Shown: piece by piece, positions 1,371-61,810 of the stretch
How positions within the stretch are numbered: the stretch's first letter is position 1
Layout: the number at the start of each line of letters is the position of its first letter
Source of the DNA: Methylococcaceae bacterium
Lineage (GTDB): Bacteria > Patescibacteriota > Microgenomatia > UBA1400 > PJMF01
Direction of reading: 5' to 3'
Length of the DNA: 61,810 bases
Assembly: GCA_044370175.1 (NCBI GenBank)
Contig: JBILVZ010000003.1
Span: 1-61,810 of the forward strand
The notes under the pieces: model-generated
Database searches by the model: none
The model's input: the letters and a program-made list of their open reading frames with translations, nothing else
Told to the model about the DNA's origin: nothing
Position numbers and translations under genes: made by a program

Positions 1371-1446
1371 TTTTAGCGCACCTTTCAGTCTTTTGTTAGT
1401 AAAATCTTCTCCAGCGAGTTAGCGACAATTAGGTATAATACAAGGT

Positions 1447-4400
1447 ATGTTTAAACTGAAGTTGTTCAGGTTGTTTTTTGTGGGCGCCATCTTTCTATTT
1501 GGTTTATTTTCACTTCGTGCACCAGCACAGGCTCAGTCTGTAGCCGATGGCTTGGCAAAAGAAATTGATGATTTTTTTGCAGTTGGGGCACAAGGCTACT
1601 TGGTATGGCAGTACTCGGGCAATAAAGGAAACGGACAGATTTTTGCAAGCGACCCCTATGCTTTTTTCCAAGGCACCCCAGATGGTGAAGCGATTTGCAA
1701 GGTTCTCCAGCAAAAGGCATCTGAAAACCCAGGCAAATTCCTAGGCGTGAATATGTGGGATGCAGGTGGCAGCGCGCACAGTCCTGAAAAAATAAAAGCC
1801 CACCTACAATGGCTGAACACCTCTTGTGGAACAACGGTCGTTCGCATCTTTGCAAAGGCCGGTGGCCCTGGTGGTGTTGAGAAAGTACTCAATGCTGCTG
1901 AGGGCACTAGAGTAAAAATCTTAGTTGCAGTGGGAGACTATAGTAACGGCAGTCCTGGACTTCCCTCTAAAGTAGGATCTGAGTGGTTCCCACAAACCCT
2001 CCAAGCATTTACTTCTCGCAACACTGGCAACGAGTTCTATGCTCAGGCAGCTGGTGTGGCTGCACTCAAAAACCACCCTGCCTATTGGGGCACTGAGGTA
2101 GCAAACGAAATCCACTGTCGTGGAGACGATGCTATCTTAGAAGATTACAAAAACTTAGGGGAAGCCTTTGCTCGCCTGTTTGGTGGACAAGTGGGATATG
2201 GACAAAAAGCAAGTGAAAACACTACTAAGTGTGATAGTCCTGGGGTACAGTTTGAGGGACAATCACACTTCCAGTACACCAACTCCCCTTCCAATATTAC
2301 CATTAGCTCCGCCCACTACTACAATCCCGCTGAAAAAGCACTCTCAATCGAGGCTGCCAAACAGGCAGTACAACAGGGAAAACTTTTTTACATTGGTGAA
2401 GCACCACCAAAACTGAATGCCGATGGCACCGATCCCACTAAAAACATCAATTATCAAACAATTCCTTATGATTTTGACCAATTTTACATCCACCCCATCA
2501 AAGGTATTAACCCCTCAAACAAAGATATCATCCGTGATGATCTCGTTAAACAAGGGTATGAAGCTCGCTGTGCTGGCCCCGGTTTTGATATTATCCTTGA
2601 CCAAAATGGGGCTGATGCCATGAAGAAGTTTCTCGATGTCCGCAATAGCCCTGGTGGAAATGGAGGCGTTTTGGGAGGAAACTCCATTGGCAAGTTTACG
2701 GGAACCTACGGCCCCAACCCTATTGGTGACCGTGTTGTTTCACTTCTGACAGTAGACTATAGAAAGTCCCTCGTCCCAGTCTTACGAGATGCGAATCGAC
2801 TCCCACAACTCAAGCGCTCACTCGAAGATTTTTACGGACATGGTCAAACAAACTCCCCCACCTACTCAGAAGCAGAATTGAAGTCTGGAGCAATCAACTC
2901 GCTCTTGACCAACAATCAGCGCTGCGTGCAGTCAGCTCTCTCTCTCTACCAACGCCAAGAGATGTGTAATAAGTTGGAAGACCCCAGTGCCTGTGCACTC
3001 TATGCTACGGAAGTACCCGACTCTGGGCTCACGGTAGAAGAACTACTCAAGCAGTTTAAGAGCTACTCATCTGGCTCCAAAGATTTTGAAAATGTCTGCA
3101 CCAAGTTGCTGGCAGGAGAAAACACCCCACTGCGCCGTGGCATGCTCCACCTGCCACTCCAGATTGATAATGCCTACCGTCTAGCATTTTTAGTCACCAC
3201 CATCCGTACAATCGTCCCCAACAGAAGATCAATGATGAACTTATTCCAACATCCACGCCGTGGACCGCTGGGTGAAGGCCCTGATCCCAAACATGTCGTA
3301 CTGGTTACTGCCTTTAAAGTACCCGATATTTTGACCAACAAAGGAACTATTGAAAACGAACCGTTTAGCGGCCATACCCCCTTTAATGATCCTGGTATGT
3401 TGACCCGAGATGTGCTGATTCCTTCAAAGATAAAACAGCAACTCGAGAAAGACGGCAATGCGGAGCGCAAGCAACTACTCGACATGGGACGCTATGTAGC
3501 ATCCATCCCACAAGATGACCAAACTATGGAGATTGAGTGTCAACTCTCTGGCATTGGCGGACAACAATGTCTAGACCCACTGTCCTGGGCACTAGTCGAT
3601 ATCATCAATGCACAAAGTCTCATTGAAAAGCAAAATGAAGACATCAATGATGATCGGCTGACGGCCACTCAAAAAGAGCAACTCTTTAAGCTCGATTGTG
3701 ATAGTGGTTTTGAGACGGTAGATTATATTTTAGATCCAGGCAAACTTGACCCCCGCGGTGATGCTGGACGGATTTTTAAGAAGGATTGGGGAGTAGCTAT
3801 CTTAGAAAACCTATTTACAGACGATACCCACATGCCTTCTGCCAATGCGCCACTTGACCCCACTTACTCTGACACCAATAACAGTAAAGTGAGCGATTTT
3901 CACTGGGGTCTCAAGTCAATTTTCCATGTTGTCGATGGCAATGAAGGTGCTTTTGGCAACTCAGAAGAAGGCAGAACTGTTCGCCAGTTTATCGTCTACC
4001 CCACCGGCTATGATCTCAAAACAGTTGAGGCAGTAGTTTCGGGCACTTTCTTCAGCAGCAACCAGATAGAAGCACTGCGTGAGAAATCCAAAAAGTACGA
4101 GTACTTGGAGATGAAGGATGGCAGCGTCGTCTTCACTGGCGGAGAGATAAGTCACTCGTTTGAAGATAAAACTGATTGTAGGACAATATACAAAACCGCT
4201 CCTAATGGTGATCTTATTCCGCATGAAGAGTGCCCCACCAAATCATTTGGCTTCCGCCTTGATACAAGCGAAGAACCAAAGCCAACTGGGGTACTGGGAG
4301 CTAAACTGGGCTACTGGACACATACCATCCAGCAGCAGTTACAAAAAGCTGCAGCTCTGACACACAAGTATTTAGAAAACTGTGACAGTACTGAAGATTT

Positions 4401-5049
4401 CTTGTTGGATGCTTGTGGTGGACCAACTATCTCCCAGGTAGCAGTTGGAGCAAATATTGCAGCTGATTTGGCCGATATTTCGAGTTTTCAGATTATGTAC
4501 TGGTACAATAAAAACATAATTTTCCAACCACCTTCACAAGAGCTTTGGGACGCAATTATGGCAGCTGCCCAAAAACATGGCTGCGACCCGTTTTTAGTAT
4601 TGGCTGTAGCAAACTCAGAAAGCCAAACCTACGATAATAGTGCTGTAAATGACTCAACTGGTGCTTCTGGAGTTTTTCAATTTACTGGCTCATGGAACTT
4701 ATGGTGGAAACCAAATGCAAGTGGCGTAAGACAATGTATGTTACACCAGCCCCCCACCTTCACAAGAGAAGGATTTGATTATAGTTCGCCCAAAAACATC
4801 CCGGCTGCCGCAGATGCTGCTTGCCGCTTACTACTATGGACAGGAGCACAAAGATATCCAGACAATAAAGCAGACTTTATTCGGGCTTTCTCACAACGGG
4901 GAGACAACCAATACGGCCAAATCTGGAATGCGCATGCGCCACAAGCCGAGTATGTCTGGCGATTATGGGGCGAGCTGGTGAAGCGAGCCAACAAAACAGC
5001 AGTTCCAGCGCCAGCAGGCTATCCATACCCCACTTGTATTAATCCGTAA
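1447..5049 (+). CDS. Secreted multidomain glycan hydrolase: GH5-like TIM barrel (apparently permuted) + unknown central region + C-terminal SLT lytic transglycosylase
   Basis: Signal peptide (AQA|Q). GH5 motifs: GVNMW, VVRIFA, EVANEIHC, SAHYY, YIGE. SLT motifs: AAQKHGCDPFLVLAVANSES and GASGVFQF. Confidence 0.7.
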   Translation: MFKLKLFRLFFVGAIFLFGLFSLRAPAQAQSVADGLAKEIDDFFAVGAQGYLVWQYSGNKGNGQIFASDPYAFFQGTPDGEAICKVLQQKASENPGKFLGVNMWDAGGSAHSPEKIKAHLQWLNTSCGTTVVRIFAKAGGPGGVEKVLNAAEGTRVKILVAVGDYSNGSPGLPSKVGSEWFPQTLQAFTSRNTGNEFYAQAAGVAALKNHPAYWGTEVANEIHCRGDDAILEDYKNLGEAFARLFGGQVGYGQKASENTTKCDSPGVQFEGQSHFQYTNSPSNITISSAHYYNPAEKALSIEAAKQAVQQGKLFYIGEAPPKLNADGTDPTKNINYQTIPYDFDQFYIHPIKGINPSNKDIIRDDLVKQGYEARCAGPGFDIILDQNGADAMKKFLDVRNSPGGNGGVLGGNSIGKFTGTYGPNPIGDRVVSLLTVDYRKSLVPVLRDANRLPQLKRSLEDFYGHGQTNSPTYSEAELKSGAINSLLTNNQRCVQSALSLYQRQEMCNKLEDPSACALYATEVPDSGLTVEELLKQFKSYSSGSKDFENVCTKLLAGENTPLRRGMLHLPLQIDNAYRLAFLVTTIRTIVPNRRSMMNLFQHPRRGPLGEGPDPKHVVLVTAFKVPDILTNKGTIENEPFSGHTPFNDPGMLTRDVLIPSKIKQQLEKDGNAERKQLLDMGRYVASIPQDDQTMEIECQLSGIGGQQCLDPLSWALVDIINAQSLIEKQNEDINDDRLTATQKEQLFKLDCDSGFETVDYILDPGKLDPRGDAGRIFKKDWGVAILENLFTDDTHMPSANAPLDPTYSDTNNSKVSDFHWGLKSIFHVVDGNEGAFGNSEEGRTVRQFIVYPTGYDLKTVEAVVSGTFFSSNQIEALREKSKKYEYLEMKDGSVVFTGGEISHSFEDKTDCRTIYKTAPNGDLIPHEECPTKSFGFRLDTSEEPKPTGVLGAKLGYWTHTIQQQLQKAAALTHKYLENCDSTEDFLLDACGGPTISQVAVGANIAADLADISSFQIMYWYNKNIIFQPPSQELWDAIMAAAQKHGCDPFLVLAVANSESQTYDNSAVNDSTGASGVFQFTGSWNLWWKPNASGVRQCMLHQPPTFTREGFDYSSPKNIPAAADAACRLLLWTGAQRYPDNKADFIRAFSQRGDNQYGQIWNAHAPQAEYVWRLWGELVKRANKTAVPAPAGYPYPTCINP

Positions 5050-61024: not shown

Positions 61025-61534
61025 GTGGATATGTATCGTCGTACAAATTTTCGTAAAAGTGGTTTAACTTTGATCGAGATTCTCATTGTTGTAGCAATCT
61101 TGATGGTGCTGATGATTACTGGTATGGTTTTTGTCCAGCCCAGTCTAAGCAAGGGGCGTGATGGCAAGAAAAAGTCAGATTTGCAGCAGATCTCAGTAGC
61201 TCTGGAAGAGTACTACAACAATAAAGCCTCGTATCCAGCTGCGCTGACAACGTGCGGTGAAACAAGTGAGATAGCAAGTGTTTTGAAAAAAGTCCCTTGT
61301 GAAGGGTCGGGAAGTCGTGCCTATCTATACATTGCTGATCCAGTGGGATGTGATGCAGCGACGGTGCGTTGTAGTGGCTACCGATTGTTGACAGATCTGG
61401 CATATGATCTGGATACAGACATTGCGAAAAAGGGCTGTACGACAGATTTTGGTGGGAAAAAAGGCTGTCATCAGGCCGGTGGTATTGTGTATGACTATGG
61501 CGTAGCAGTTGGACGCAGTTTAGCAGACTACTAA
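61025..61534 (+). CDS. Type IV pilin / GspG-like pseudopilin
   Basis: Class III signal G|LTLIEILIVVAIL with Glu5; GRDGKKKSDLQQISVALEEYY..YP. Confidence 0.9.
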   Translation: MDMYRRTNFRKSGLTLIEILIVVAILMVLMITGMVFVQPSLSKGRDGKKKSDLQQISVALEEYYNNKASYPAALTTCGETSEIASVLKKVPCEGSGSRAYLYIADPVGCDAATVRCSGYRLLTDLAYDLDTDIAKKGCTTDFGGKKGCHQAGGIVYDYGVAVGRSLADY

Positions 61535-61587
61535 GGTGTCTTGATTAAATCTAGTAACGAGAACACAAAATAGTATATGATGAAGCT

Positions 61588-61810
61588 ATGAAATTCTTTG
61601 GGAAACAAGCCAAGCAAAAAGGTTTTACGCTGATTGAGCTACTAGTAGCGATGACAATTATCGGCATCTTGGCCACAATTGGCTTGCGTAGTTTCTCTGG
61701 AGCTCAGCTGAAGTCACGTGATGCAAAGCGGAAAAATGATCTAGCTTCTATGCAGAAGGCACTTGAGTTGTACTACAACGATTTTGGTCAGTATCCACAG
61801 AGTGCTGGCG
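61588..61810 (+). CDS. Type IV pilin / GspG-like pseudopilin, truncated by window edge (not in ORF track)
   Basis: MKFFGKQAKQKG|FTLIELLVAMTIIGILATIGLRSFSGAQLKSRDAKRKNDLASMQKALELYYNDFGQYP. Confidence 0.9.
   Translation, partial: MKFFGKQAKQKGFTLIELLVAMTIIGILATIGLRSFSGAQLKSRDAKRKNDLASMQKALELYYNDFGQYPQSAG

Follow-up and report, generated by a model that had tools for sequence, protein, structure and literature searches.

Extended -10 boxes next to start codons and their probable role in leaderless initiation in a genome of the Patescibacteria

How transcripts and proteins begin is the question raised by the 61,810-nucleotide contig JBILVZ010000003.1 (assembly GCA_044370175.1; hereafter the window, on which positions are given unless another contig is named), where a -10 promoter hexamer appears to end only 6–9 nt before the start codons of at least 14 genes. 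A preliminary description of the window had taken this geometry as a sign that the organism relies heavily on leaderless initiation, and had regarded many genes of a type IV secretion system (T4SS)-like block as independent transcription units. The window is one entire contig (C30) of a 1.22 Mb genome in 54 contigs that has a GC content of 42.7% and is rated 99% complete. It encodes DnaA, DnaN, ValS, a VirB4-like ATPase, a VirD4-like coupling protein, a PrgI-like protein and a 1597-residue M23-peptidase protein, and its sequence is contained in lake-water metagenomes. The closest named relatives of its DnaA are metagenome-assembled genomes (MAGs) labelled Candidatus Pacebacteria or Paceibacterota, and the organism is therefore a bacterium of the candidate phyla radiation (CPR)/Patescibacteria. 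Our analysis indicates that the boxes are most probably sigma-70-type extended -10 promoters giving rise to leaderless mRNAs, in the arrangement termed group C by GeneMarkS-2.

All 19 listed sites, namely the 14 boxes and five examples of genes led by a Shine-Dalgarno (SD) sequence, were read back from the DNA, and the hexamers, the 6–9 nt spacings and the start codons of the 14 are exactly as listed. Enrichment was measured over the whole genome on 1059 non-overlapping open reading frames (ORFs) of at least 100 residues, of which 1057 were used with motif-blind starts. These were assigned from coding potential alone by a 3-periodic Markov model; upstream DNA plays no part in the choice, which avoids circularity. 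A strong box, defined by T1, A2 and T6 plus at least five of six matches to TATAAT, ends 6–9 nt before the motif-blind start in 158 of the 1057 genes (14.9%), against a mean of 32.8 genes (3.1%) in displaced 4-nt windows (binomial p = 4e-59). The peak is narrow, with 53, 48 and 38 genes at 6, 7 and 8 nt and 10–13 at other positions. When starts are placed at the first ATG, hexamers with at least five matches to TATAAT occur at 5.0, 3.9 and 4.3% for 6–8 nt as compared to about 1% elsewhere upstream, and only about 0.25% of internal in-frame ATGs are preceded by a strong box at any one position. A learned 10-column matrix (score threshold of at least 4) places a box at 6–9 nt in 145 genes; displaced windows give 23 and shuffled upstream DNA 13 ± 4. 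The identical pipeline finds a strong box in none of 164 genes in 200 kb of E. coli K-12. In the window, which is about twice as rich in boxes as the remaining genome (14.4%), 12 of 44 genes have a strong box where 1.7 are expected (p = 7e-9). Set against displaced and shuffled upstream DNA, the boxes thus stand far above background.

It could still be argued that the pattern is an artefact of AT-rich intergenic DNA combined with start codons chosen to fit. Some of the starts in the preliminary description were indeed chosen to fit (GTG 47750, and ATG 6095, which was preferred to the start of the longest ORF), and TANNNT by itself is met in about 11% of 4-nt windows of upstream DNA; yet the pattern withstands motif-blind starts, displaced windows, shuffles, internal ATGs and the E. 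coli control. Coding potential alone picks the identical start in 74% of the leaderless-type class; 38% of this class do not start at the longest ORF, and 8% have an SD-bearing in-frame start downstream. The box is also kept in orthologues whose upstream DNA has randomised. Syntenic loci from four congeneric genomes (G001–G004; 65–82% DNA identity) allowed the listed genes to be compared with orthologues 26 times. In 23 comparisons a TAnnnT box ends 5–11 nt before the conserved ATG, versus 2–5 of 26 for displaced windows. These orthologues share the ATG and the first residues, and positions -60 to -21 are about 32% identical, i.e. near random. The relatives lend support to the candidate promoters before 1447, 6095, 15004, 22116 (two of three), 23435, 35604, 38091 and 52820 and, more weakly, to that before GTG 47750; the boxes at 38140 and 61588 are not conserved. 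On the strength of the enrichment tests and the orthologue conservation, chance and start-picking were rejected, and we regard an artefact of this kind as extremely improbable.

The motif itself has the features of a promoter. Expectation-maximisation with two motif classes yielded a first matrix, t-G-G-T-A-t-A-a-T, with spacers of 6, 7 and 8 nt at 25, 23 and 17% and spacers of 10 and 11 nt at 9–10% each, and a second, A-A-G-G-A-g, with spacers of 3–6 nt. In the former T1, A2 and T6 are nearly invariant. A TGn precedes 52 of the 158 boxes (33%), where composition would predict an estimated 6%; G occupies position -14 in 54% of boxes and is favoured at -13 too (44–51%). Within the window five of the 14 boxes have TGn (6095, 12033, 38091, 38140 and 52820), in agreement with the extended -10 element that had been noted for several of them. 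In 85% of the leaderless-type class a pyrimidine at -1 is followed by A at +1, and no -35 signal is present in the aligned members of this class. Classic -35/-10 pairs are in fact under-represented between 12 and 30 kb of the window (21 versus 34 expected), and a scan for such pairs was dropped as a promoter finder since they are rarer than expected. Extended -10 promoters (TGnTATAAT) operate without a -35 element in E. coli and Firmicutes. The boxes share with them the TG at -15/-14, a near-consensus -10 hexamer and the lack of a recognisable -35, and differ in that G at -13 is favoured and the full TGn occurs in only one third; they are thus candidate promoters of this type. A single RpoD homologue was found as sigma factor (C6:10989-12053; tblastn with E. 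coli RpoD as query), 62% identical over residues 369–612, which span regions 2–4 and include the part holding region 3.0.

The genomic context of the boxes bears on a further alternative, that TAnnnT is a translation signal on the mRNA. GeneMarkS-2 group B comprises genomes with non-SD ribosome-binding motifs, found in Bacteroidota and their relatives (Lomsadze et al. 2018, PMC6028130); these genomes have an AT-rich motif next to start codons and weak SD use, as does this genome. The box lies where a ribosome-binding site would be, an SD is found in only about a quarter of genes, bS1 is present but short (a tblastn match of about 330 codons at C8:4293-5294 to an E. coli query fragment of 502 residues) and bS21 is doubtful, with a sub-threshold match only (21.6 bits where the cut-off is 27; an 85-residue frame at C29:10617-10754). 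IF3 is present by tblastn. These ribosomal findings are not decisive for the mode of initiation. However, group B motifs also precede operon-internal genes (PMC6028130), whereas here the box is found before 25% of genes with a divergent neighbour, 30% of those in co-directional gaps of 16–50 nt and only 7% of those within 15 nt of the upstream gene, an approximately fourfold depletion. The box moreover resembles a sigma-70 element in its T1, A2 and T6 and in the TG(G) that precedes it, and the same matrix peaks again 15–29 nt upstream of SD-class genes that head transcription units (in the window, 38647 and 29564). Such a distance leaves a leader just long enough for an SD, which fits a promoter and not a ribosome signal. 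Only one gene scores for both a -10 box and an SD, and 26 of 160 divergent gene pairs have no more than 70 nt between their start codons. The depletion of the box before operon-internal genes and its promoter features place this genome outside group B; together with the 15–29 nt peak, gene context led us to reject the translational reading, to which we attach very little probability.

The proposed mechanism is accordingly a transcriptional one. Sigma-70-type extended -10 promoters with the above consensus and without a -35 element would direct RNA polymerase to start on the A of the start codon or no more than about 3 nt away from it; the mRNAs would then have neither a 5' leader nor an SD, so that ribosomes would have to start translating on the 5'-terminal AUG. 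Other genes would form a second set with the canonical SD AAGGAG, which would pair with the CCUCC tail of the 16S rRNA; this anti-SD tail is intact, as the 16S rRNA ends in ...GATCACCTCCTTTCT. The SD genes would carry the same promoter motif 15–30 nt upstream or closely trail another gene in an operon. Motif, spacing, enrichment, context dependence and conservation are directly observed features, and from them we infer where transcription starts and how ribosomes load.

That the boxes are promoters is also accepted by another explanation, in which most transcripts have very short leaders of 2–8 nt and are not truly leaderless, and initiation would use another feature, such as U at -1 or A-rich unstructured 5' ends. 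Spacings of 9–14 nt are common, the trained matrix having its secondary values at 10 and 11 nt; among transcription-unit heads without any other signal, a further peak lies at 10–14 nt; and T stands at -1 in 59% of starts of every class. The modal spacing argues otherwise. With a -10 box at -12 to -7, 6–8 nt between box and start codon put +1 on the A of the ATG or 1–2 bases beside it, and the pyrimidine at -1 followed by A at +1 in the leaderless-type class suits such a start. The same 6–8 nt is the spacing given for leaderless genes of M. tuberculosis (PMC6028130). Very short leaders as the general rule thus seem unlikely to us, and leaderless mRNAs remain the preferred interpretation.

The T at -1 deserves description in its own right. 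Examples in the window are 1446, 15003 and 38646. Its frequency reaches 66% for starts on which coding potential and the first ATG agree, compared to 29% at internal in-frame ATGs and 24% at all ATG trinucleotides, and the bias is shared by all three classes (leaderless, SD and no signal) and by tightly coupled genes. In relatives it ranges from 31 to 63%, and it is 24% in E. coli and 19% in the Deinococcus radiodurans megaplasmid MP1. The bias may stem from extended pairing of U at -1 with A37 of the initiator tRNA.

Several observations weigh against leaderless initiation or against the reach claimed for it. The gene set is self-built and its start calls are imperfect. D. radiodurans MP1, run as a positive control, gave only a small peak at 6–7 nt (TANNNT at 6.6% versus 2.3%). 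Starts are called poorly in DNA of 63% GC, which accounts for the low peak, and insertion sequences abound on this replicon; this control was left out of the calibration. No RNA run was found with the queried 10-kb stretch of the window or the 16S gene, and a query with the TasA-like gene of the window retrieved, from three freshwater metatranscriptomes, four contigs of 150–215 nt, none of which lies on a leaderless-type gene. Sites with spacings of 9–14 nt (6095 and 52820 in the window, and the genome-wide peak at 10–14 nt) would more likely give rise to leaders of 1–8 nt than to none. Finally, neither signal is present in over half of the genes (55% among those heading transcription units), and leaderless initiation is therefore one mode among several.

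Its share can be put in numbers that vary with the threshold and the operon calls. By the strict matrix 200 genes are leaderless-type (19%), 250 are SD-type (24%) and 608 are neither; by the trained model 30% are leaderless-type and 28% SD-type. Among the 663 genes that head transcription units, 133 (20%) are leaderless-type, and an extra excess of about 30 genes with a box at 10–14 nt, which implies very short leaders, brings the combined figure to about 25%. A fair statement of the extent is thus a fifth to a quarter of transcription units. The "pervasive" use of leaderless initiation in the preliminary description holds as regards a large and distinct class of genes abutted by a box, but is overstated in view of the genes that fall in neither class. 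The separate SD-led class that it had set apart is borne out by its five examples (19806, 30344, 38647, 42381 and 60894), which have AAGGA or GAGG 4–6 nt before the ATG, and by the AAGGAG matrix learned genome-wide.

Leaderless translation is textbook knowledge for actinobacteria, Deinococcus and archaea, and it is very likely that the mechanism is the one known from mycobacteria and Deinococcus and that only the lineage is new. GeneMarkS-2 group C unites genomes with frequent leaderless transcription, such as those of Mycobacterium, Streptomyces, Corynebacterium and Deinococcus-Thermus; in these a Pribnow box lies 6–8 nt from the starts of operon-first genes, SD-type ribosome-binding sites are used elsewhere and ATG is preferred (Lomsadze et al. 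2018, PMC6028130). Between 25 and 50% of operons in group C are leaderless, and many genomes of Actinobacteria and Deinococcus-Thermus belong to it; the text of that paper does not name Patescibacteria/CPR among the lineages rich in it (PMC6028130). The present genome resembles group C in its box peak at 6–8 nt, the tie of the box to genes heading transcription units, the use of SD elsewhere and the intact anti-SD tail. Its predicted leaderless share of transcription units, which varies with threshold and operon calls, would lie at the low end of the group C range. It differs in its lineage, its 43% GC and its large third class without signal; its consensus is also nearer TATAAT/TATACT with an upstream TG(G) than the loose TANNNT of actinobacteria. 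The finding is hence a solid description and no new mechanism.

To see how far the arrangement extends, the identical pipeline was applied to relatives, including, beyond the genus, samples of 18 more distant genomes. In partial genomes of the same genus 14–20% of genes have the box, in the family samples 12.5 and 13.5%, and in the order sample, a closed genome, 19.9% versus 1.5%. Pooled over 15 genomes across the phylum, 110 of 958 genes (11.5%) have it, as opposed to 3.5% in displaced windows; 12 of the 15 are enriched at least 2-fold, and several have no excess of SD-like 4-mers. The box-abutting arrangement is thus common to most of the relatives sampled, up to the level of the phylum.

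A full-text search of the literature returned no paper linking leaderless initiation to CPR/Patescibacteria. Tsurumaki et al. (2022, PMC9297842) described that in CPR bS1 is short and bS21 often lost, and that some Parcubacteria have lost the anti-SD motif; that work notes missing anti-SD tails and ribosomal proteins and does not discuss leaderless mRNAs or the mode of initiation. One CPR species is covered by a promoter survey of 2025, its starts being derived from RNA-seq only (PMC12641261). It is conceivable, and we offer it as a tentative proposal that is somewhat less probable than its converse, that leaderless initiation is a phylum-wide and possibly ancestral part of a minimal grammar of gene expression in Patescibacteria. 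This grammar may consist of one housekeeping sigma factor, an extended -10 without a -35, no leader or a very short one, and U(-1)AUG in every gene class, and may be paired with reduced ribosomes, i.e. a short bS1, a weak or absent bS21 and, in some Parcubacteria, loss of the anti-SD (PMC9297842).

If this phylum-wide proposal were true, SD-oriented gene callers would systematically misplace the start codons of CPR genomes, and if 15–30% of genes start on a 5'-terminal AUG, start calls in CPR MAGs would need a model of the group C type. Operon inference from gene spacing would likewise be unreliable, because promoters occur in co-directional gaps of 16–50 nt without terminators. The compact promoter of about 16–18 bp (TGGTATAAT, 6–7 nt and ATG) could also be used in expression tools for cultivable CPR.

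In the window the individual sites are as follows, none of the 14 having an SD at a workable distance on read-back, as had been claimed for them. The hexamer TATAAT at 1434-1439 (plus strand; box to start codon 1434..1449) ends 7 nt before ATG 1447 of a 1200-residue ORF without a Pfam match; the orthologue in G004 has an identical box and spacing despite its diverged upstream DNA. An AAGG before 1447, like that before 35604, ends 1 nt from the ATG and so makes no workable SD. Upstream of ATG 6095 the extended -10 TGGTATACT, with hexamer TATACT at 6080-6085 (plus strand; 6077..6097), lies at 9 nt. The longest ORF there would begin at TTG 6038; the TATACT is kept 7–9 nt before a conserved M(L/F)KR start in three of three orthologues. 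A back-to-back pair occupies a 99-nt gap: on the minus strand the extended -10 TGATATAAT (hexamer TATAAT at 12041-12046; 12031..12049) ends 7 nt before ATG 12033 of a 1259-residue ORF, and on the plus strand TATAAT at 12119-12124 (12119..12135) ends 8 nt before ATG 12133. Orthologues of these two genes were not found in the fetched loci of the relatives.

Further along the plus strand, TATAAT at 14991-14996 (14991..15006) ends 7 nt before ATG 15004, whose 1597-residue product has a C-terminal M23 peptidase domain and opens the T4SS-like block; the box is kept at 7 nt in two of two orthologues. Within the block a weak TAAAAT at 22104-22109 (plus strand; 22104..22118) lies 6 nt before ATG 22116 and is a candidate internal promoter. 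G004 retains it, G002 has TATACT at 6 nt instead and G001 lacks it; together with the box of 35604 it scores under the stricter matrix threshold. The VirB4-like ATPase starting at ATG 23435 is preceded at 7 nt by TACAAT at 23422-23427 (plus strand; 23422..23437), and a box at 7–8 nt is kept in four of four orthologues, as is the MP(D/S)L start. In addition to the 14, dnaN (ATG 27719) has TATAAT at 27706-27711 (plus strand; 27706..27721), 7 nt away. On the minus strand TATAAT at 35611-35616 (35602..35616) ends 6 nt before ATG 35604 of a 139-residue ORF and is kept at 7–8 nt in three of three orthologues.

The valS gene and its divergent neighbour are separated by a gap of 48 nt, which leaves no space for two leaders, and each has a box of its own. 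For valS (ATG 38091, minus strand) this is the extended -10 TGTTATAAT (hexamer TATAAT at 38098-38103; 38089..38106), at 6 nt; in four of four orthologues a box lies 6–10 nt before the conserved MESRY start, with an upstream identity of about 35%. For 38140 (plus strand) it is TGCTATACT (hexamer TATACT at 38127-38132; 38124..38142), at 7 nt. The G003 orthologue of 38140 is SD-led with a -10 further upstream. The nearby gene at ATG 38647, coding for an SPFH/Band 7 protein, exemplifies the contrasting class: TATAAT at 38618-38623 (plus strand; 38618..38649) is followed by a leader of about 16 nt with the SD AAAGGA. In G003 and G004, this gene has TACAAT 8–9 nt before the ATG; 38647 and, in the opposite sense, 38140 thus change class between species of one genus.

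In the remaining part of the window, TATACT at 43766-43771 (minus strand; 43757..43771) lies 6 nt before ATG 43759 of an FN3-domain protein, for which comparison is uninformative because the G001 copy is 98–99% identical. At 47737-47742 (plus strand; 47737..47752) a TATAAT ends 7 nt before GTG 47750. An alternative in-frame ATG at 47741 sits within the -10 box itself, and in the G001 orthologue a TATAAT lies 8 nt ahead of an ATG that is placed one codon further downstream; GTG 47750 is a plausible start. The VirD4/TrwB-like coupling protein (ATG 52820, minus strand) is preceded at 9 nt by a second copy of the extended -10 TGGTATACT (hexamer TATACT at 52830-52835; 52818..52838), the TATACT being kept at 6–9 nt in two of two orthologues. 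The weakest of the sites is TATGAT at 61576-61581 (plus strand; 61576..61590), 6 nt before ATG 61588 of an ORF cut by the contig end; the G002 orthologue is without the box.

Returning to the T4SS-like block at 15–26 kb, promoters are thus predicted before 15004 and 23435, where they are conserved, and a weaker one before 22116; 19806 is SD-led and lies 8 nt past the preceding stop codon, and 20854 is without a signal. No intrinsic terminator was found in any gap of the cluster. Genome-wide, just one of 41 leaderless-type promoters in co-directional gaps of 16–50 nt is preceded by a terminator-like hairpin, and modules of terminator plus promoter were not found here. The view that the T4SS genes are independent transcription units is thus unsupported, there being internal promoters and no terminators in the gaps. 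A co-directional array with predicted nested internal promoters and read-through fits the block best. On a read-through transcript the ATGs of these genes would be internal and without SD, and for that reason their translation probably depends on each gene's own promoter, which favours the idea of the preliminary description in a functional sense.

Hairpins with T-tracts resembling terminators are scarce throughout the genome, occurring in 26% of convergent gaps and in almost no co-directional gap shorter than 100 nt. The VirB4-like ATPase (23435-25654) matches its NCBIfam model only from model position 177 on. The ORF at 22116-23384 appears by eye to have an N-terminus like a VirB4-type start followed by a Pro/Gln-rich tail, and may be a split or duplicated VirB4 N-domain.

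Some divergent pairs elsewhere in the genome have only 19–27 nt between their start codons (C54:49628-49652, C40:6836-6857, C32:15659-15679 and C40:14168-14196). They contain a near-palindromic 8-bp box (AGTATAAT/ATTATACT, AGTATACT) that presents a -10 hexamer on both strands, each 7–8 nt from its ATG. They would represent the lower size limit conceivable for bidirectional leaderless promoters. Warman and co-workers reportedly described, in 2021, bidirectional promoters arising from -10 symmetry; as in those, one box offers -10 hexamers on both strands, while here, in a handful of cases, both predicted transcripts would be leaderless mRNAs of real genes and the intergenic region is about 23 nt.

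Two other loci of the window were noted. The block at about 38680-43800, with TasA/camelysin-like and FN3 genes, is 94–99% identical to G001:C29:86825-90142 and beyond, and its flanks are 67–80% identical, which suggests that this surface-fibre locus was recently recombined or transferred between species. Just upstream of the SD-led TasA-like gene in it (42381, minus strand), positions 42378-42528 are covered by one 151-nt metatranscriptome contig (run X27, depth 2); this single contig would mean a long leader or read-through from 43759-42623. The 348-nt gap between dnaA and dnaN (27371-27718) contains three copies of GTTTTCAACA plus TTTTCCACA and TGTGTATAA, and two further box-like 9-mers lie upstream of dnaA at 25655-25762; these repeats and 9-mers are probably variant DnaA boxes of oriC.

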